Positions 1 through 15,386 of a stretch of DNA of 64,000 nucleotides are shown here, piece by piece. The stretch covers positions 1,416,679 through 1,480,678 of the forward strand of contig JBFWJC010000001.1 of assembly GCA_050253415.1 (NCBI GenBank). Direction: 5' to 3'. The notes under the pieces were generated by a model, which saw only the letters and a list, made by a program, of their open reading frames with translations, was not told where the DNA came from and searched no databases. The translations under genes were made by a program, and so were the position numbers. Numbering within the stretch: the first letter of the stretch is position 1; each line of letters begins with the position of its first letter. Origin of the DNA: Pedobacter sp. (lineage in GTDB: Bacteria > Desulfobacterota > Desulfuromonadia > Desulfuromonadales > Syntrophotaleaceae).

Positions 1-57
1 ATAAGGGTGGTTCAAACGAGCCAGTTCTACCCCTGCTCCCCTCCAATCATCAAAAAC

Positions 58-91
58 GAAAAGCCCTTCACATTGATTTGAAGGGCTTTTC
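58..91. terminator. Bidirectional intrinsic terminator-like hairpin
   Basis: GAAAAGCCCTTCA-N8-TGAAGGGCTTTTC, a perfect 13-bp inverted repeat with A/T tails. Confidence 0.7.
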
Positions 92-273
92 TCATATCGT
101 AGGAATCAGGCGATTCCTAACAGCTATGCAATACAAAAAAGCATTTCCTTCGTTTACGAGAAAAGTTATTTGTTATTAGCCTACTTATCATGCGTATGAA
201 TTAATTTGATAATGCTATAATCCACGAGGACTCAACTTATCTTCAAATAAGATCAAAGGAATAGTGCGAAAAT

Positions 274-1077
274 ATGAAAGATTCCGTTGAGAGGCTATTA
301 AGTCACCGACATGCGTTTTTCTCCAAAGAAGGCGAGGACGGGGTGTTGGCGTACATTTTGTCGCGAATGCCAGATAGGACCGGCTGGTGTGTGGAATTCG
401 GGGCGTGGGACGGCATATCTGAAAGCAATACACACTACCTCGTATCGCAACAGGCCTACCGCGGCGTGATGATTGAAGCGGACCCTCTCAAATATAATCG
501 TTTGTGCGAAAACATGAGACGATACGGCACTATTTGCATAAACGCTTTCGTACGCCCCGAAGGAGAAAACAGGCTCGACAACATTTTGAGTCATACCACC
601 ATTCCCGAGCAGTTCGATCTGCTGTCCATCGATGTCGACGGCGAAGACTACCATGTCTGGAGATCTTTGGAGAATTACCAGCCCAAAGTCGTCATAATAG
701 AAATCAACATACACGACAAACCCGGGGTGAAACGCATACACAAACCAGGCTCCCCAATATTCCAAGGCAATGCCGGTGCACGCAATCTATCCACGATAGG
801 CATCTATGGTTACAGCGGTACAAGTATCACTTCCATGACTGAACTCGCCACTCGGAAAGGATACAGCCTGCTAGCAAATGTTCACTGCAACGCAATATAT
901 GTCAAAAGCGAATATCTGGACTTATTTCACGACAGGGAAGTTGCGCCTGAAGAGGTGTTCACCTACGAGAATTACGGCATATTAGAATTATCCATAGGCG
1001 AAATGAAACATCTTGGGTGGAAAAGAGTTGTTGCGAAGAATCATTTTTTCCAAAGGGCACTATGTCTCGCAAAGTGA
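274..1077 (+). CDS. FkbM/Methyltransf_21-like SAM-dependent methyltransferase
   Basis: 267 aa ORF with motifs GEDG, VEFGAWDG..SNT, MIEAD, LLSIDVDGEDY..W, PKVVIIE. Confidence 0.75.
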   Translation: MKDSVERLLSHRHAFFSKEGEDGVLAYILSRMPDRTGWCVEFGAWDGISESNTHYLVSQQAYRGVMIEADPLKYNRLCENMRRYGTICINAFVRPEGENRLDNILSHTTIPEQFDLLSIDVDGEDYHVWRSLENYQPKVVIIEINIHDKPGVKRIHKPGSPIFQGNAGARNLSTIGIYGYSGTSITSMTELATRKGYSLLANVHCNAIYVKSEYLDLFHDREVAPEEVFTYENYGILELSIGEMKHLGWKRVVAKNHFFQRALCLAK

Positions 1078-1195
1078 AATTCAGGAAGCGAGGGGGGGGG
1101 TGGGCACATGACCTTCCTGTCGTGGTTTCGTAGTTCAATCAAATGAAAAACGATACACAATAATATTAATTAAAAATAAGGTTCCATTAGATGTC

Positions 1196-1223
1196 TTGCA
1201 TGGTTTTGGTGCAGTGATAGAAT
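1196..1223 (+). promoter_or_regulatory. Putative sigma70 promoter of the hxs operon
   Basis: TTGCAT-N16-TAGAAT with extended -10 TG, and an AT-rich tract upstream. Confidence 0.5.
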
Positions 1224-1256
1224 GACACGTCGACTAAACACGAAAGGGGGGGAGGA

Positions 1257-1607
1257 ATGGAAACTATATCTAATTTTATCAACATCACGGACTCCGGTTG
1301 TGCAAACATCACCATAGACAGCTCGTTATATGAACTAGAGGCTATCAACGCAGCGAGCTATGCTTTCACTGACAACTATCATGTTCTGGCGAAACGCGTG
1401 GATGACGCGATCGTCACCGTCATCTTCGAGTTGAAAGACAACGCTTCGCAGAGGAACATCCCTCAGGACATCAAGTCTTTTGTAAATGCGGTCATCGACC
1501 ACCAAGTTAGGCTCCAGCTCGACCGGACAAACGGAAAAATTCGGGATCTGATTGTCGCACACGCCTTTTCTCCTCTTGATCTCCATGAGGAAACCAAATG
1601 TCTTTAG
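1257..1607 (+). CDS. hxsD: His-Xaa-Ser system protein HxsD
   Basis: 116 aa. C-terminal FVNAVIDHQVRLQLDRTNGKIRDLIVAHAF resembles the HxsD signature. Overlaps the start of hxsB. Confidence 0.8.
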   Translation: METISNFINITDSGCANITIDSSLYELEAINAASYAFTDNYHVLAKRVDDAIVTVIFELKDNASQRNIPQDIKSFVNAVIDHQVRLQLDRTNGKIRDLIVAHAFSPLDLHEETKCL

Positions 1608-3067
1608 ATGACAAAACCCAGAGGATACTGCCGTTTCAGTTCTCTCGATTTGATCGTGACGACTATCTGCTCGTCAACGAGAGCGGAGAATACATCTTTC
1701 TCGATAGTGTCGAATTTCGCAAGCTCGTCCAAGGCGAGATAACTCCTGACTCTCCATCCTATTTCGACTTGAAAAGCAGGCACTTCCTCAACACGGAACA
1801 TCTGGCGGAAACACTTGAGCTGGTTTCCGCGAAATACAGGAGTCGTAAGCGGTTTATCTCTAACTTCACTTCGCTGCACATGATGGTCATTACCCTAAAG
1901 TGTTGCAACGATTGCACTTACTGCCAGGTTACCGCCGAGGGCGACGACGCCCAGGGCTTCGACATGTCTCCGGAAGTAGCCCGCCGCGTTATAGACTACA
2001 TCTTCAAGTCCCCAGCGAAGGTGATAAAGATAGAATTTCAGGGAGGAGAACCTACGCTTAACTGGGAAACACTCAGGGAGTCAGTCCTCTATGCTAAAGA
2101 GGTCAACCAGAAGCACAATAAGCATCTTGACTTCGTCGTATGCACAAATCTCGTCAAGGTTGGAGAAGACCATCTCAGGTTCTTCAAAGAGCATGGAATC
2201 TCCATTTCAACCTCCTTGGACGGACCTAAAGATCTCCATGACAAGAACCGGGTTCTGCGAAGCGGAGACGGCACCTACGACGTTGTCACAAAGAACATGT
2301 ATAAGGCTTTCGACATCCTGCTCCGCGGCAACGTGAATGCCCTCATGACCACCACCGTGGACAATATCGACCATCTGCGGGAGGTCATCGACGAGTATGT
2401 GAAGCTTGGGCTAAACGGGGTGTTCATCAGGTCGCTCAATCCGTACGGCCTGGCCGTAACTAACGTAGAAAATCTCGGTTATCCGGTGGAGCGTTTTGTC
2501 GAAAACTTCGAAAAAACACTCGATTATATCATCCAACTAAACCTCACCGGCACAAGGTTTGTAGAGTTCTACACGTGCATCCTGCTAACCCGAATCCTAA
2601 CGCCTTTTTCAACAGGCTTCGTGGATCTCCAGTCGCCATCGGGCGCAGGAATCTCGGGAGCGATATACGACCACAACGGCGATGTTTATCCTGCCGACGA
2701 AGCGCGCATGTTGGCCAGGATGGGCGACCGTCGCTTCTGCCTAGGGAATGTCTTCACAGACTCCTACGAGAGCATTTTCGGCGGAGAGCTTCTTCGGGAG
2801 ATTGTCGGTAAGTCATGCGTCGAAGTTATGCCTTACTGTGGATACTGCGTGTATCGATCATACTGCGGCTCCGACCCGGTTCGCAATTACCGCGAGACGG
2901 GCGACCTCATGGGGCATCGGCCAGACAACGATTTCTGCAGAAAGAACAAGCTCATCTTCGATTTGTTGTTCAAAAAGCTCAAACGCAACGACCCCGACGA
3001 GATGGACGTTTTTTGGTCTTGGATTACTTGTCGCAGCTTGAAAGATGTGCGGGGTGAATTCGAATGA
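1598..3067 (+). CDS. hxsB: His-Xaa-Ser system radical SAM/SPASM maturase HxsB
   Basis: CxxxCxxC (CCNDCTYC), IKIEFQGGEP, STSLDGP, GFVDLQSPSGAG, C-terminal Cys cluster CGYCVYRSYCG..FC; N-terminal LPFQF; paired with a second rSAM gene. Confidence 0.9.
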   Translation: MSLDDKTQRILPFQFSRFDRDDYLLVNESGEYIFLDSVEFRKLVQGEITPDSPSYFDLKSRHFLNTEHLAETLELVSAKYRSRKRFISNFTSLHMMVITLKCCNDCTYCQVTAEGDDAQGFDMSPEVARRVIDYIFKSPAKVIKIEFQGGEPTLNWETLRESVLYAKEVNQKHNKHLDFVVCTNLVKVGEDHLRFFKEHGISISTSLDGPKDLHDKNRVLRSGDGTYDVVTKNMYKAFDILLRGNVNALMTTTVDNIDHLREVIDEYVKLGLNGVFIRSLNPYGLAVTNVENLGYPVERFVENFEKTLDYIIQLNLTGTRFVEFYTCILLTRILTPFSTGFVDLQSPSGAGISGAIYDHNGDVYPADEARMLARMGDRRFCLGNVFTDSYESIFGGELLREIVGKSCVEVMPYCGYCVYRSYCGSDPVRNYRETGDLMGHRPDNDFCRKNKLIFDLLFKKLKRNDPDEMDVFWSWITCRSLKDVRGEFE

Positions 3068-4194
3068 GGCAATTCAAAGGGATAGCGAGAAACATGAAGG
3101 GGCAGGTATTTGGCATGGTGACGCGCAACCCTTTTTCACTGTCCAGGGCGAACCGAGTGCTTGTCACGGACGAACCCTCGTTATTGGCAACGGGCTTTGC
3201 TGGCCTAATAACGAAGGATCATGGCTGTGGTGTGTCACGGCCCCAGATCAAGGTTCACGACGACACCTTGGGCAGGTTCAAAGAGGGGGACTGCGTCTTA
3301 ATGGAGGGGGACGGGACCATTTCGGTCCTTTGGGAAACGAGTTCGCCGATGAACTCGCTTTTTCTCACCGAGGCTTGCGACTGCCGCTGCATTATGTGCC
3401 CACAGCCACCAAAAGAGCATGATAGGGGCTTGGTGGAAATAAGCAAGCACACTCTTTCTCTTGTCGACATCAGAAAAGATCAGGTTCTTTGCTTGACGGG
3501 CGGGGAGCCTACCCTTCTAAAGGAAGAGTTTTTCGAGGTTTTGAGGTTGATTAGCAAAAAACATCCGAAAGCAAGTACCATGATGCTTACTAACGGCAAA
3601 TCTTTTGCGGAATTCGGGTTCACCAAACGCTTTGTTTCAGAGCGACCGAAGGATTTTCTTACCTGCATTTCGATGCATGGCGACGTAGACGAACTCCACG
3701 ACCAGATCGTGGGCGTGAAGGGCAGTTTCTACAAAACGGCGATGGGGCTGCAGAACCTTGCTCGCTTCCGCGAGAAAATTGAAATACGGGTGGTGGTGAA
3801 TCGACTCAACGCCCATCGTCTCGAATCAATTGCGACCTTCATCCAGCGAAACTTTCCGTTCATCTACCATTGTACCTTCATGGCTATGGAGATCACCGGT
3901 CTGGCCAGCGACAATTACGAAACCGTATGGATCGATCCCCACGAATACCGTGATCAACTCTCTCGGGCGGTAAGCGTGCTGAACCGGGCCGACATTTATG
4001 TCTCCATTTATAACCTTCCCTTGTGTCTGGTCGAATCTAGATCCTGGAATTTTGCTAGGAAGTCCATATCTGGATGGAAGAACGACTATCTTCCGGTATG
4101 TGAGAGTTGTCTCGCCAGAGAAGATTGCTGCGGGGTTTTCACGACCTCGGGATTGCATCAAAGCCCACATATCTGTCCACCGGTGAATGTTTGA
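3064..4194 (+). CDS. hxsC: His-Xaa-Ser system radical SAM maturase HxsC
   Basis: NSLFLTEACDCRCIMCPQPP, TGGEPTL, LTNG, ARKSISGWKNDY..CESC....CCG; ATGA overlap with hxsB. Confidence 0.9.
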   Translation: MRQFKGIARNMKGQVFGMVTRNPFSLSRANRVLVTDEPSLLATGFAGLITKDHGCGVSRPQIKVHDDTLGRFKEGDCVLMEGDGTISVLWETSSPMNSLFLTEACDCRCIMCPQPPKEHDRGLVEISKHTLSLVDIRKDQVLCLTGGEPTLLKEEFFEVLRLISKKHPKASTMMLTNGKSFAEFGFTKRFVSERPKDFLTCISMHGDVDELHDQIVGVKGSFYKTAMGLQNLARFREKIEIRVVVNRLNAHRLESIATFIQRNFPFIYHCTFMAMEITGLASDNYETVWIDPHEYRDQLSRAVSVLNRADIYVSIYNLPLCLVESRSWNFARKSISGWKNDYLPVCESCLAREDCCGVFTTSGLHQSPHICPPVNV

Positions 4195-4290
4195 ATTCAT
4201 AATCTTGAAGCGAGTTTGTCTTTTGGAACTCAGGATGTACCATTTTGAGGGAAAAACTATCTCTTGCTTCAGGGGAAAGGAGGATATTCC

Positions 4291-4515
4291 ATGAAGAAAC
4301 TATTTGGGAAGATGAGCCTTATTGTCGCAGCAGCAGTTGCTCTTTTCGGCATTTCGGCGAGCAACTTGCAGGCGTCTATATCGAACATCGACGACAAGAC
4401 GCCGCTTTATCTGGAGCACGGAAAGCAAATAACCGCGGGCATTGATTTCGCCCACGGGAGTCACGTTTCGCATGGCTCGCACGAATCGCACCATTCGCAC
4501 TACTCTAGCCGATAA
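4291..4515 (+). CDS. hxsA: His-Xaa-Ser repeat precursor peptide (HxsA-type), 74 aa
   Basis: Strong SD (AAGGAGG) before ATG at 4291; hydrophobic N-terminus; C-terminal HGS-HVS-HGS-HES-HHS-HYS-SR; lies directly after the two rSAM genes. Confidence 0.88.
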   Translation: MKKLFGKMSLIVAAAVALFGISASNLQASISNIDDKTPLYLEHGKQITAGIDFAHGSHVSHGSHESHHSHYSSR

Positions 4516-4551
4516 TCGCTAGGCTTTAGCACAGACACCGCTCCGGACAGA

Positions 4552-4598
4552 TACCTCCCTTAACCCTCGGCTTTTGGCTTTGGGTTAAGGGGGGAGTA
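4552..4598 (+). terminator. Stem-loop downstream of the precursor gene
   Basis: CCCTTAACCC-N15-GGGTTAAGGG inverted repeat; U-tract is weak. Confidence 0.45.
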
Positions 4599-4827
4599 CA
4601 TTTGTTCATGCAAAAGATTCAAAGTAGATTGTCAGGATCAGAAGAAAAAGCAGACTCCGAACCATCGTCAGATATGAAACTCCTCTGCTTGAAATCATTT
4701 ATTTTTCCACTGTCTAGCTTTATCGTAACTGACCAAGTTTTATAAAGCTTGCACGGCCTAAATCCGACAAAGCTAATTTACCTGCATAAAAACAGGATTG
4801 TTTTCTTTTTTATACGATTACCAGAAC

Positions 4828-4870
4828 ATAAAACGGCCCAACCTGTTTCTCATTGGTTGGGCTGTCTTAT
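4828..4870 (-). terminator. Terminator-like hairpin near the element end (may block read-in from comEC)
   Basis: Imperfect 16-bp inverted repeat ATAAAACGGCCCAACC / GGTTGGGCTGTCTTAT; T-rich tail on the minus strand. Confidence 0.45.
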
Positions 4871-5026
4871 ATTTTGTCTCAAATTGGTTACGGTGGGTGT
4901 CAAGGGGTTATCAGATTATTTAAGATTTATCAGACATTGGAACCTAGGCCGGATGATCTGGTTTCCGACCAGAAGAGAGGACCTTGCATGTGGACGTGCG
5001 CTATTTAGACCGGCTTAATAGGTAAT

Positions 5027-5160
5027 GGGTTAATAACATTTTTCTCCGAGAGTTGTCAGTGCTATCCAAGCGGGTAAATAACTTTTTACCTTTTTAACAA
5101 GTTCGGTAATGGTTCTAAGTAGTCGAAATTACATGAGGTCCAGTAAACGACAATTTTTGC
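5027..5160. repeat. Three spaced direct repeats (putative transposase-binding sites)
   Basis: gggttaataacatttttctc (5027-5046), gggtaaataactttttacct (5072-5091), cagtaaacgacaatttttgc (5141-5160); shared core GTWAAYRACWWTTT. Confidence 0.6.
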
Positions 5161-6327
5161 AAAAATCACCAGGGAAAGTTGAGCGATTCTGTGGCACACA
5201 CCGGGCATGGCCGGCAAATGGTTGCTCCAGCGCGGCAGAAAGACAAGGATGCCGAACACTCCGGCGAAAGAAAGTTGAAACGATGGCGTGAACAGACTCA
5301 TGGGGGTTGCCACAAGGATGGCGAGGGCAATGGCCAGGGCCGCATGCAAGGGATTGCAACAGCGACGCACCCAAAGCAGGCCCGCCACTACGGCGGCGGC
5401 TAACCAGGCGCGTATGGCCGGCAGGGCTTGACCGGTCAATTGCAGGTAACACCATAGTGCCGGTAGCAGCAAAACAGGCAACAAACGGCGCGGTGGTAGC
5501 GCCAGCAGGAGTTTTTCACTGTGGCGCATGATGGCCAGTAGCGCCAGATATCCGACTGCGGCAACCAGCCCAAGGTGAAATCCGGAAATCGAAAACAGGT
5601 GGGACAGCCCCATGCCGGCAAGACGCGCACGTTGAGTTTTGTTCAACATATCTTTGTCGCCAATGATCAGGGCGCGCACCAATGCTTCCTGGTCTTTGTC
5701 CGGTACAGAGTATGCGATGAGCTTTCCTATGCGTGTACGCAGCCCGGTCAGAGGGGAAGGGCTGGTGTTCTGCAGTAGCGCGATGCCGGTGTCGTCCGGC
5801 AAAAACCCGGTAAATTGCAGGCCGCTGGCAGCCAGGTGTCGTGGATAGTCGAATTCACCGGGGGTGCCGAACCGTCGTGGAATGTGCAAGCGGGTGCGCA
5901 CCGCCAGTTCTTCGCCGCGGATAAAACTGCGCTCCGATTTTTCTATCTGCAAGCGCATGCCGCCTGACGCAGTAACAGGATGGCGATTCTGCAAAACATG
6001 GTGAATCCAAAGATCCAGTTGTTTGCTTCCATCGGGCCGGGATCGGGTCCGCAAAACACGGACATAGAGCGTATGCGGCGTTTTTTCGGAAAGGGATTGT
6101 AAAACGACTGTTTCGGGTGGCGGGCTGCTCTGGAGGTGGTAGTTGGAATAGCCGAAAGCCAGCATCAGAAAACAGAGCAAACAGGCTGCTCCTATGGCGT
6201 TCCGCAATGGCAACCATGCGATCGCCAGCACAACCGGCAACAGCAGGTGCCATGCCGGCGGCGGGATCGCCAGAGCCAACAGTAATCCCGTTGCATACGC
6301 CGCTGTCAGGGTGGGCAGATTAATCAT
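5086..6327 (-). pseudogene. comEC: ComEC/Rec2 competence protein, truncated by insertion (5' part only)
   Basis: PGEFDY, ALIIGDK, GLSHLFSISGFHLG and SFQLSF motifs present. The ORF ends at 413 aa with a non-homologous tail encoded by AT-rich DNA. The remaining TM segments and the metallo-beta-lactamase domain are missing. Confidence 0.85.
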
Positions 6328-6420
6328 GTCGGGGGAAAGCCTCTCGCTTGTGCAGTGCGGGTGGCAGGTATTGGTCAGTAAGGGGAACCTGGCGATCTGT
6401 CCATAGGACGCAGAGCGAGA

Positions 6421-13436: not shown

Positions 13437-15386
13437 ATGCTGGACCTGATTCGGAAAAAGCAGCGGTCAGTACTTGTTAAAATAGTCTTCTGGACGATTA
13501 TTGCCGCTTTTATAGGAACCATTTTTCTGGTCTGGGGAAAGGGGAGCGGTGGCCCAAGTGGTGCGGATAACTCCGCCGTGCATGTGAACGGGGATCCTAT
13601 CAGTTATCAGGATTTCCAAATGGCCTACCAGAACCTGCGCCAGGATATGGAGCAGCGCTTCGGTCGCAGCCTGCCACCGGAAATCGAGAAGCAGCTGCAG
13701 CTGAATAATCAGGCCTACGATCAGCTTCTCAGCCGGGTGTTGTTGCTGCAGGAAGCCGACCGCCGCGATATCGAGGTCAGTAAGGACGAATTGCGTCAGG
13801 CGATTGCCGACATCCCTGCTTTTCAGAAGGATGGGCAGTTCGACCGTAATCTTTATGCGCAGGTTCTCCAATATCAGCATCTCACTTCCAAGGGTTTTGA
13901 ACGCAATATGCGCGAACAGCTGCAGATCACCAAAGTGGTCGAGGCTGTCAAGCAGGAGGCCGAGGTTAGCGAGCAGGATATCGAACAGGAATTTCGTAAT
14001 CGTAATGAAAAGATCGATCTGGCCTATGTGAAGTTTGCCGCCGGAGCTTATGAGAGCAAGGTGGTGGTGATCGATGAAGCGCTGCAGGCGTATTATCAAG
14101 ACCATCGTGAAGATTTCCGGCAACCCGAAAAGCTCGCCCTTCGCTATCTGCGGTTTGAGCCCGATTCTTTTGCAAAAGATGTGACCCTCGATGAAGCAGC
14201 TATCGAGGCTTATTATGAAAAACACAAGGATCAGTTCTGGGTGGCCGAGCAGGTCAAGGCTTCGCATATCCTGTTTCGCGTTACTCCGGCTATGGATGAG
14301 GCTGATCACCAGAAAAAGCGTGCCCTGGCTGAAAAGGTCCTCGAAATGGCCAAGTCCGGCAAAGATTTCGCCGGACTGGCACGTAAATACTCGGATGATG
14401 CCGGCAGCGCGATCAAAGGCGGCGAACTCGGTTATTTTACCCGTGGAAGCATGGTGCCCGATTTCGAAAACGTGGCGTTTGGCCTCAAGCCCGGGGAAAT
14501 CAGCGATATCGTCGAAACTTCGTTCGGCTATCACATCATAAAATGCGAAGGTTACATCAAGGCTGAGACCAAGCCCTTGGTGGATGTTCGCGATGAAGTG
14601 CGTAGCAGCCTTCGCAGCGAACTGGCCCGGCAGATGGCGCTGGACAAGGCCATGGAAGCCTACAGCGCTCACCGTCAGGACGGCGACATCGACGCCGCTG
14701 CTTTGGCCAATGGCCTCGAGGTTCGCGAAACCGGTCTTTTCGCGCGTGGTGACGCCATCGACGGATTGGGCACCGATGACGATATTACCGTAGCAGCCTT
14801 TGCCCTTAAGGACGGAGAACTGGCTCGACCGATGGTGCGTGAGCAGGGTGTGATTACCTTTGTCGTCAAGGAGCGTCATGCCAGTGTCGTTCCGGAGTTG
14901 GCCGAGGTACGCGCCGACGTAGAGCGGGCCTATCGCAGTCAGGAAAGCGTTGGGCTGGCCCGACAGGCAGCCGAGGATCTCCTGGTTGAACTCAAAGCCG
15001 GTAAGAAACTGGTCGACCTGGCCCTCAAGGAGAAGCTTGAAATTGGGGAAACCGGCTTTTTCCCGCATTCCTACGGCGATTTTATTCCGCGAATCGGCAA
15101 CTCCGAAACCTTGTCCAAGGCAGCTTTCGCCCTGACCATGAAGGCGCCGGTGGCCCCGGAGGTTTTTGTTGTCGACGATCGTTTCATCGTGGCGACCCTG
15201 ATCCATCGCCAGGAGGCCGACCCTGCACAATTAACCGAGGCGACCCGCGAAGAACTACGTACTTCCCTGTTGGCCAGCAAACGTGAAAAATTGTTGGTCG
15301 ATCTTATTCAAACCCTCAAGAGTGAAGCCAAGATCGAGGTCGAGCCGACCTTGAAAAATATTTTGGAAGGTGAAAAAGCTTTATGA
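13437..15386 (+). CDS. ppiD: PpiD-like periplasmic chaperone / parvulin PPIase (SurA N-terminal domain)
   Basis: N-terminal TM, SurA_N region, [19 protein letters not shown]...GGELG..MVPDFE..GYHIIK. Confidence 0.85.

Follow-up and report, generated by a model that had tools for sequence, protein, structure and literature searches.

A Tn7-like element in comEC, apparently a dedicated attachment site reused among related bacteria

The 64,000-nucleotide stretch analysed here (the window; positions 1416679-1480678 of contig C1 in the source genome, coded G000) opens with 5.2 kb of mobile DNA that ends inside comEC, the gene for the membrane channel through which DNA is imported. Window positions 5027-5168 are very probably the left, cargo-side end of a cut-and-paste Tn7-like transposon, with a TnsA+TnsB transposase, a TnsC regulator and a TnsD target selector, which integrated into comEC and produced the 5-bp target duplication CCAGG. 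Related copies are found at the same spot elsewhere, and comEC looks like a dedicated landing site. An initial annotation, made from the sequence of the window, had already proposed such a left end, and the rest of the genome bears it out: the sites are spaced, they lie on the cargo side of a 61,753-bp element that encodes tnsABCD, and the insertion is flanked by a 5-bp duplication.

As the annotation had described, comEC runs into AT-richer DNA and stops: from its methionine codon at 6327 the frame reads to ...HRIAQLSLV, continues for 26 further codons and ends at 5086. This 5' half (window 5169-6327, minus strand) comprises codons 1-386 plus 1 nt and encodes, besides DUF4131, only the initial two thirds of the Competence domain (Pfam positions 1-188 of 270). 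The GC fraction is about 0.56-0.60 in comEC versus 0.38-0.45 in the last kb of the element. A whole-genome search with the Competence family identified a second comEC piece (profile positions 149-268) on the same strand, 61.7 kb upstream (C1:1358903-1360094), where it is continued by Lactamase_B, as expected of the C-terminal half of ComEC; the 3' half that the annotation had expected elsewhere in the genome is therefore present and not deleted. Taking out the element and one CCAGG restores the reading frame (1159 + 1192 - 5 = 2346 nt, or 782 codons), and the rejoined junction reads ...QLSLVTMAAAITTGP... (...QLSL-V-TMAAAITTGP...), in register with the 17 intact ComEC proteins of relatives. Because ComEC is the DNA-import channel and is split between the halves of its channel domain, DNA import should be lost, and with it, presumably, DNA uptake by natural transformation.

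Copies of CCAGG stand at C1:1360090-1360094 and at window 5169-5173, and the element is therefore C1:1360095-1421847; window positions 1-5168 are its last part, and its other parts, tnsABCD and the right end among them, are all upstream of the window. The distal copy of CCAGG had been predicted by the annotation. On the plus strand the distal junction reads ...GGTGACCAGG, followed by foreign DNA. The 5-bp duplication is found at both junctions in G000 and also in the genome of a congener, G006, and as a single copy in an empty allele from sequencing run X3 (discussed below). Both junctions share a sixth base (A) because the CA terminus of the left end adjoins CCAGG, and with the duplication taken as 5 bp both ends of the G006 element begin with TG.

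Read inward on the minus strand, the left end starts with a terminal 8-bp segment, TGATTTTT (window 5168 down to 5161), precisely at which contigs from other samples break or bridge. Three TnsB-type sites follow on the same strand, spaced 69 and 45 bp apart: a terminal site at 5143-5160, a second at 5074-5092 and an innermost at 5029-5047, each of which matches both the core motif and a looser regular expression. The terminal segment and the first site overlap in the palindrome ATTTTTGCAAAAAT (5153-5166). All of these features, together with CCAGG at 5169-5173, had been picked out in the annotation and were confirmed in the sequence. The core GTWAAYRACWWTTT has exactly three matches in the 64-kb window (at 5029, 5074 and 5143) against 0.01 matches in shuffles, with 0 of 100 shuffles reaching three, a comparison that is circular given that the pattern was derived from the very same sites, and the weight therefore rests on independent checks. 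The looser expression has 77 matches in the whole 4.1-Mb genome, and these form clusters (less than 150 bp apart) in three places only, namely the two element junctions, where they are inverted, and an overlapping palindromic pair at C3:40656.

At the distal (right) end, which adjoins the 3' half of comEC and is inverted relative to the end in the window, three back-to-back copies of the motif are spaced at 20-21 bp (read inward, AAATGTCGTGAC twice and then AAAGTTGTTTAC), the contiguous array that the annotation had anticipated. G006 has a matching contiguous and spaced layout. Contiguous right-end sites combined with spaced left-end sites are the Tn7 pattern. In both ends 16 nt stand before the first TGTCG. 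Termini of the form 5'-TGT...ACA-3' are absent; the ends begin with TGA (left ends of G000 and G006, and a remnant in genome G052), TGG (G006 right end) or TAA (G000 right end). The annotation had taken the TGA terminus to lower confidence in a Tn7-like end. In this group, however, ends usually begin with TGA or TGG, as four of the five examined do, and the odd one is the distal right end of the G000 copy.

The four transposition genes that the annotation placed upstream of the window were all found there, in locus L008 (C1:1396679-1416678, directly upstream of the window), and each matches the prototypic Tn7 proteins. They form four open frames on the plus strand, running from the right-end side towards the left end, with tnsA encoded beside tnsB. 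TnsA (L008:11515-12375, 286 aa) matches PF08721 (3.9e-9), PF08722 below the cut-off (3.9e-4) and PDB 1t0f (2.3e-30). TnsB (L008:12398-14578, 726 aa), a predicted DDE transposase, matches the Tn7 TnsB structure 7pik (4.8e-60). The tnsC open reading frame (ORF) is L008:14406-16067, with a probable start near 14553 (about 504 aa), and its product matches AAA_22 (1.3e-12), TniB (1.8e-5) and Tn7 TnsC in PDB 8glu_G (1.6e-37). TnsD (L008:16094-17977, 627 aa) matches PF15978 (5.4e-73), TniQ PF06527 (1.7e-16) and PDB 8glu_X (1.6e-10).

No recombinase was found that could give the element another identity: none of the genome's 16 tyrosine recombinase matches (PF00589) and none of its three serine recombinase/resolvase matches lies inside it. 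The scanned ORFs of the element include no Cas family, and the surroundings of the left end and of the tns genes yielded no CRISPR array, no tandem or direct-repeat array and no Rfam match. The suggestion that the site could be a TnsD/TniQ or CRISPR-associated transposon (CAST) target is supported in its first part, given that the site recurs and the element encodes TnsD, and fails in its second: with no cas gene, no array or repeat, no RNA family and a large TnsD present, CAST identity was rejected. Membership in Tn6022/AbaR was also rejected, the element lacking a tyrosine-recombinase-like TnsF (0 of 16 PF00589 matches) and its target being comEC and not comM, as was membership in Tn5053/Tn402 (TniABQR), given the presence of TnsA and the absence of resolvase matches (0 of 3). 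A tandem array with a second, internal right end just upstream of tnsA was considered and rejected, there being no motif cluster or repeat at that position.

The annotation had asked whether the same position of comEC is used in other genomes. Among 41 relatives surveyed (G000 counted in), three members of one genus, G000, G006 and G001, have a divided comEC, and the gene is intact in the other four congeners (G002-G005). The insertion in G006 is at the same nucleotide, with the same CCAGG. Two contigs of G001 have their first letters precisely at the duplication (ACCAGG and CCTGG), which fits an assembly-graph branch at the junction; no Tns proteins were found in this 78%-complete genome with the queries used. 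We extended the search for split comEC to 206 genomes of the order with at least 80% completeness, and among the matches listed the only real splits in the followed-up candidates are those of G000 and G006. Three other candidates were rejected: in G088 two contig ends overlap by about 60 nt, an artefact; in G206 the two pieces are neighbours on a single contig and nothing is inserted between them; and G127 has one full copy and a weak fragment. The comEC piece of G057 ends at a contig end, G119 and G205 have two comEC matches each that together span the whole profile, and G064 and G098 have one weak match each. In G052, from another family of the order, a decayed right-end-like remnant (L125:1400-1560; G052:C3, about 462230-462320) starts with TGA, carries two motif copies and adjoins a 114-codon 3' fragment of comEC that starts at ComEC HMM position 408, as in the split site. 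The remnant is 8 bp closer to a conserved TGGCATTTCCAC block. Other parts of comEC were not found in G052, and no tns genes were found within 40 kb of the remnant; a TnsB at 38% identity is encoded on another contig.

The elements of G000 and G006 share one site and differ in much of their length. Nucleotide identity is about 88% in the chromosomal flanks, 82-87% in the comEC halves and about 81% over the outermost 340 bp at the right end. From C1:1360435 to about 1404200 identity rises to 99.8-100%, although an internal part with two IS30 copies is unassembled in G006, and over the next 3 kb it declines through 93, 86 and 79%. The genes tnsA to tnsD are 55-67% identical in nucleotides, the TnsB proteins are 62% identical in amino acids, and the left-end sides are unalignable beyond about 32 nt. 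The parts from tns to the left end thus stem from different elements, both of which meet comEC at one and the same nucleotide. The shared cargo of about 44 kb (G000:C1:1360435-1404200 versus G006 contigs C83 and C1; L024, L043 and L041) lies between the right end at about 81% and the tns genes at 55-67%. A near-identical block of this size in species that are about 88% identical implies that cargo was exchanged recently between the two, and it looks like an exchange between two different comEC-resident elements. The idea that this block is itself a composite transposon was rejected, there being no flanking inverted IS copies and the rve-like ORFs at its edges being unrelated.

Assembled contigs from sequencing runs add further cases; all comparisons with runs use assembled contigs only. 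In X3, one contig crosses the junction in the manner of G000, with 54 differences in 1539 nt, and a second covers window 5168-6400 with 31 differences. The 30-letter loose end of the second equals C1:1360060-1360089, and this contig therefore represents an uninterrupted comEC with a single ACCAGG, the empty allele, from a strain about 97.5% identical. This sample thus contains, side by side, closely related strains with a filled and with an empty allele. In X2, a contig of 6211 nt shows 0 differences to window 4000-5169, and its next 30 letters, reverse-complemented and compared by eye, agree with G005 comEC (...RWRRVAQIGM) in all but one position (29 of 30). The junction falls at the codon homologous to ...QLSL of G000, after the ATG where G005 continues GTCACC, which is an offset of 1 nt. 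Comparing the G005-type comEC with that of G000 gives an identity of only 66-68%, and the identical left end within it indicates that the same element entered the same site in a different species. Contigs of runs X5 and X8 bridge the junction as in G000. Some parts of the stretch have no contig cover in X8 and X2.

Taken together, the site has been reused within 0-1 nt by two or three element/host combinations, with one further remnant at 8 bp, and the annotation's expectation of a shared comEC position is borne out by G006, the contig starts of G001, and X2, with G052 being 8 bp off. The orientation is the same in the two complete copies (G000 and G006), in which the right end faces the 3' half of comEC, and the G052 remnant agrees. 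Two observations from X5 concern the same region. A contig of depth 637 (shorter side 28 nt) joins window 4886 to 5166, skipping 279 bp of the left end, and may represent a truncated end at this site or a further element there. An abundant contig of the comEC 5' half (depth 947) differs from G000 at 40 of 1179 positions.

Several observations weigh against a Tn7-like element dedicated to comEC. The TnsB homologue has no Pfam match even at E up to 1, and the rve and Mu-transposase models miss it. The layout is not canonical, with 48 kb from the right end to tnsA. The right terminus of the G000 copy starts with TA, not TG, and the two ends agree at only 7 of the 16 terminal positions, so that this copy may be unable to move any more. 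G000, G001 and G006 are mutually closest, their comEC being 83-87% identical compared with 66-76% to the other four congeners, and they are therefore not independent events on their own and could reflect one old event. The cross-species case in X2 is one contig at depth 9 with a 34-nt overhang and covers the left junction only. No comEC was found within 10 kb of more distant TnsD relatives at any of 150 loci (77 from genomes at 33% identity or less, the G006 contig itself apart, and 73 from metagenomes at 34% or less), in a search with an HMM built from 12 intact ComEC which elements with a right end more than 10 kb from tnsD, such as that of G000, escape. Specificity for comEC is therefore confined to a very small clade. 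The HMM detected its positive controls, namely the halves of the split comEC in G000, G001 and G006 and the fragment in G052. Finally, the link from TnsD to comEC is drawn by analogy with Tn7.

The close relationship of the three split genomes raises the alternative of one ancestral chance insertion, in which case the apparent recurrence would reflect vertical descent together with homologous recombination that swapped element parts or flanks between related strains, and comEC would not be a dedicated target. This fits the first 340 bp of the right end, whose identity between G000 and G006 (about 81%) is near that of the comEC halves (82-87%), and the block of about 44 kb that is at least 99.8% identical demonstrates that recombination between elements does occur. 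We nevertheless consider it improbable. The left ends are unalignable beyond about 32 nt and yet meet the same comEC nucleotide, next to a comEC flank that is not unusually similar (82.5-84.6%). Recombination of flanks would not yield the left end seen in X2, in a comEC of 66-68% identity and at a 1-nt offset. The G052 remnant is in another family and is offset by 8 bp, and an empty allele is present in a strain about 97.5% identical.

For repeated insertion by a comEC-directed element, the behaviour of Tn7 at attTn7 suggests a route. TnsD would bind conserved coding sequence of comEC on the right-end side of the insertion point and would then recruit TnsC, which would bridge to TnsAB; TnsAB would integrate the element in a single orientation, its right end facing the bound sequence, and at a set distance from the latter. 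The putative bound sequence, roughly +20 to +60 bp from the insertion point, encodes ...VT.AA..TT.P.VLWHFH..AP.... The best conserved stretch of the region is encoded on the right-end flank (T.AA...T.P...HFH..AP...N..AVP), and among 17 comEC genes the mean column identity is 0.69-0.77 over +1 to +90 versus 0.46-0.75 over -60 to -1.

The candidate selector belongs to a clade of its own. The TnsD proteins of G000 and G006 are 43-44% identical to each other and at most 34% identical to all others found, and a third member is P0002. The G006 element encodes two tandem TnsD paralogues (L034:1501-3261 and L038:1501-3372; G006:C1:39358-43170) that are 36% identical mutually and 43-44% and 36-37% identical to the TnsD of G000, which suggests two attachment-site specificities in one element. 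Tentatively, and with somewhat less than even confidence, we propose that a small TnsD clade (G000 TnsD, and G006 TnsD1 with P0002) evolved to read the conserved coding sequence of the comEC channel domain as its attachment site, and that its elements are now moving between Pelobacter-like species in subsurface habitats. Destroying DNA uptake would keep transformation from replacing the element with an empty allele, an effect that has also been proposed for the AbaR islands in comM.

A comEC-targeting Tn7-like element could also use a selector other than TnsD; candidates are an unannotated protein from the interval that separates tnsD from the left end and the conserved rve-like ORF that precedes tnsA. 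In the neighbourhood of the tns genes, three ORFs are without a family (L008:18180-18578, L008:19234-19965 and L008:9779-10612, the last with a weak rve match, E 0.001), the two paralogues in G006 indicate that selector use is not simple, and comM targeting by Tn6022 depends on TnsF and not on TnsD (available portions of PMC10293859). This version is quite unlikely, however: at 627 aa the TnsD of G000 is full length and includes the TnsD C-terminal domain PF15978, and in Tn7 it is this form that binds directly to attachment sites; the element has no tyrosine-recombinase-like TnsF; and G000 and G006 share their own TnsD clade. Finally, the junction could have no transposon end at all and be the border of a site-specific-recombinase island or the edge of a comEC deletion or rearrangement, to which the size of 62 kb, the mosaic content and the IS30, IS3 and IS1595 copies would be suited, but the lack of a recombinase gene within the element, the two comEC halves that join in frame, the inverted multi-site end arrays and the 5-bp direct repeat leave this with next to no probability.

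The cargo that separates tnsD from the left end, about 7 kb long, comprises two of the ORFs without family, an FkbM methyltransferase and hxsD, hxsB, hxsC and hxsA. A complete His-Xaa-Ser system (window 1257-4515) thus adjoins the left end, preceded by the FkbM-type methyltransferase (window 274-1077, plus strand; PF05050, 7.9e-8). Its genes, all on the plus strand, are hxsD (1257-1607; TIGR03976, 6.6e-18), the radical SAM/SPASM maturase hxsB (1598-3067; TIGR03978, 2.7e-174), the radical SAM maturase hxsC (3064-4194; TIGR03977, 5.6e-101) and hxsA, which encodes the His-Xaa-Ser repeat peptide (4293-4515; TIGR03979, 1.1e-6, below the cut-off). The ORF of hxsA is listed from 4264, and an ATG behind a ribosome-binding site is at 4293. 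A hairpin-containing repeat of about 70 bp (window 4816-4884) is also found elsewhere in the genome, with a 91% match on C2 and weaker ones on C4 and C1, and is not part of the transposition machinery. It draws many short, high-depth metagenome contigs (high summed depth in bin 4810-4890), and a related copy is present in the left-end region of G006.

The 48 kb between the right end and tnsA encodes IS3 and IS1595 transposases, aldehyde and iron alcohol dehydrogenases, an [FeFe] hydrogenase with a flavoprotein partner, and a cyclic-oligonucleotide-based antiphage signalling (CBASS) set. The CBASS-like operon (L008:3246-7711; G000:C1:1399924-1404389) contains a CD-NTase (DncV-like/SMODS), an E2-E1 fusion (Prok-E2_B + ThiF) and a SAVED-domain effector. 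Two IS30-type copies, 99.4% identical and in direct orientation, flank an aldehyde:ferredoxin oxidoreductase (AFOR) gene (L010:11671-16582; G000:C1:1368349-1373260). This arrangement resembles a composite transposon, and the contigs of G006 break at the IS30 copies.

The value of Tn7-family elements lies in their insertion at one exact site, to which a dedicated protein or a guide RNA directs them. The Tn7-like element described here has an attachment site within comEC that is new and apparently protein-read, together with natural evidence of site reuse and recent mobility, and a new protein-read site provides a natural selector-and-target pair to study or reuse. Insertion into comEC should abolish natural transformation entirely, whereas loss of comM weakens it. 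The element would be a second, independent Tn7-like island that silences host transformation, in a different phylum and with a different type of selector, and this second case would strengthen the idea that mobile elements gain by silencing the transformation of their hosts. The island carries defence cargo (CBASS and the His-Xaa-Ser system) and an aldehyde/alcohol/hydrogenase block that is near-identical in two species. If a true comEC-targeting clade is the right reading, the coexistence of filled and empty alleles in X3 makes it directly testable in nature.

The only printed link that we found between the Tn7 family and comEC is a CAST (available portions of PMC9881144), in a search that had most subscription journals outside its reach, so that a report of a TnsD-type case is possible. 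The words 'comEC' and 'competence' are absent from the main and text-format supplementary parts of PMC10293859 and PMC8649781. In the reported case, the last spacer of a cyanobacterial type I-B1 CAST targets comEC and non-TGT/ACA ends are predicted (Hsieh and Peters 2022, PMC9881144, in the portions available). The two are alike in being Tn7-family elements that land in comEC, a likeness at the level of the gene, and in having non-TGT/ACA ends; they differ in that the CAST uses a guide RNA, Cascade and a small TniQ, according to the same portions of PMC9881144, whereas the element described here has a large TnsD and no cas gene or array.

Prototypic Tn7 resembles the element in its four core proteins, each with a direct match to solved Tn7 proteins, in its asymmetric ends, with contiguous sites upstream of tnsA and spaced sites at the cargo end, in its 5-bp duplication and in an insertion point beside highly conserved coding sequence. 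Unlike Tn7, which inserts downstream of glmS and leaves it intact, the element lies within its target gene and destroys it. Its termini are TGA or TGG (TA at one end) and those of Tn7 are TGT; no TnsE was recognised in the element, and 48 kb of accessory DNA separates its right end from tnsA.

The Tn6022/AbaR islands of Acinetobacter are likewise Tn7-like, site-specific for a natural-transformation gene and inactivating (available portions of PMC10293859, PMC11472951 and PMC11441513). Their targeting of comM occurs via TnsF (PMC10293859) and is discussed in PMC11472951, again in the portions available. The element described here differs from them in its target, comEC encoding a membrane channel and comM a cytoplasmic helicase, in the phylum of its host and in its selector, which is a TnsD-family protein and not the TnsF that the same portions of PMC10293859 describe for Tn6022.

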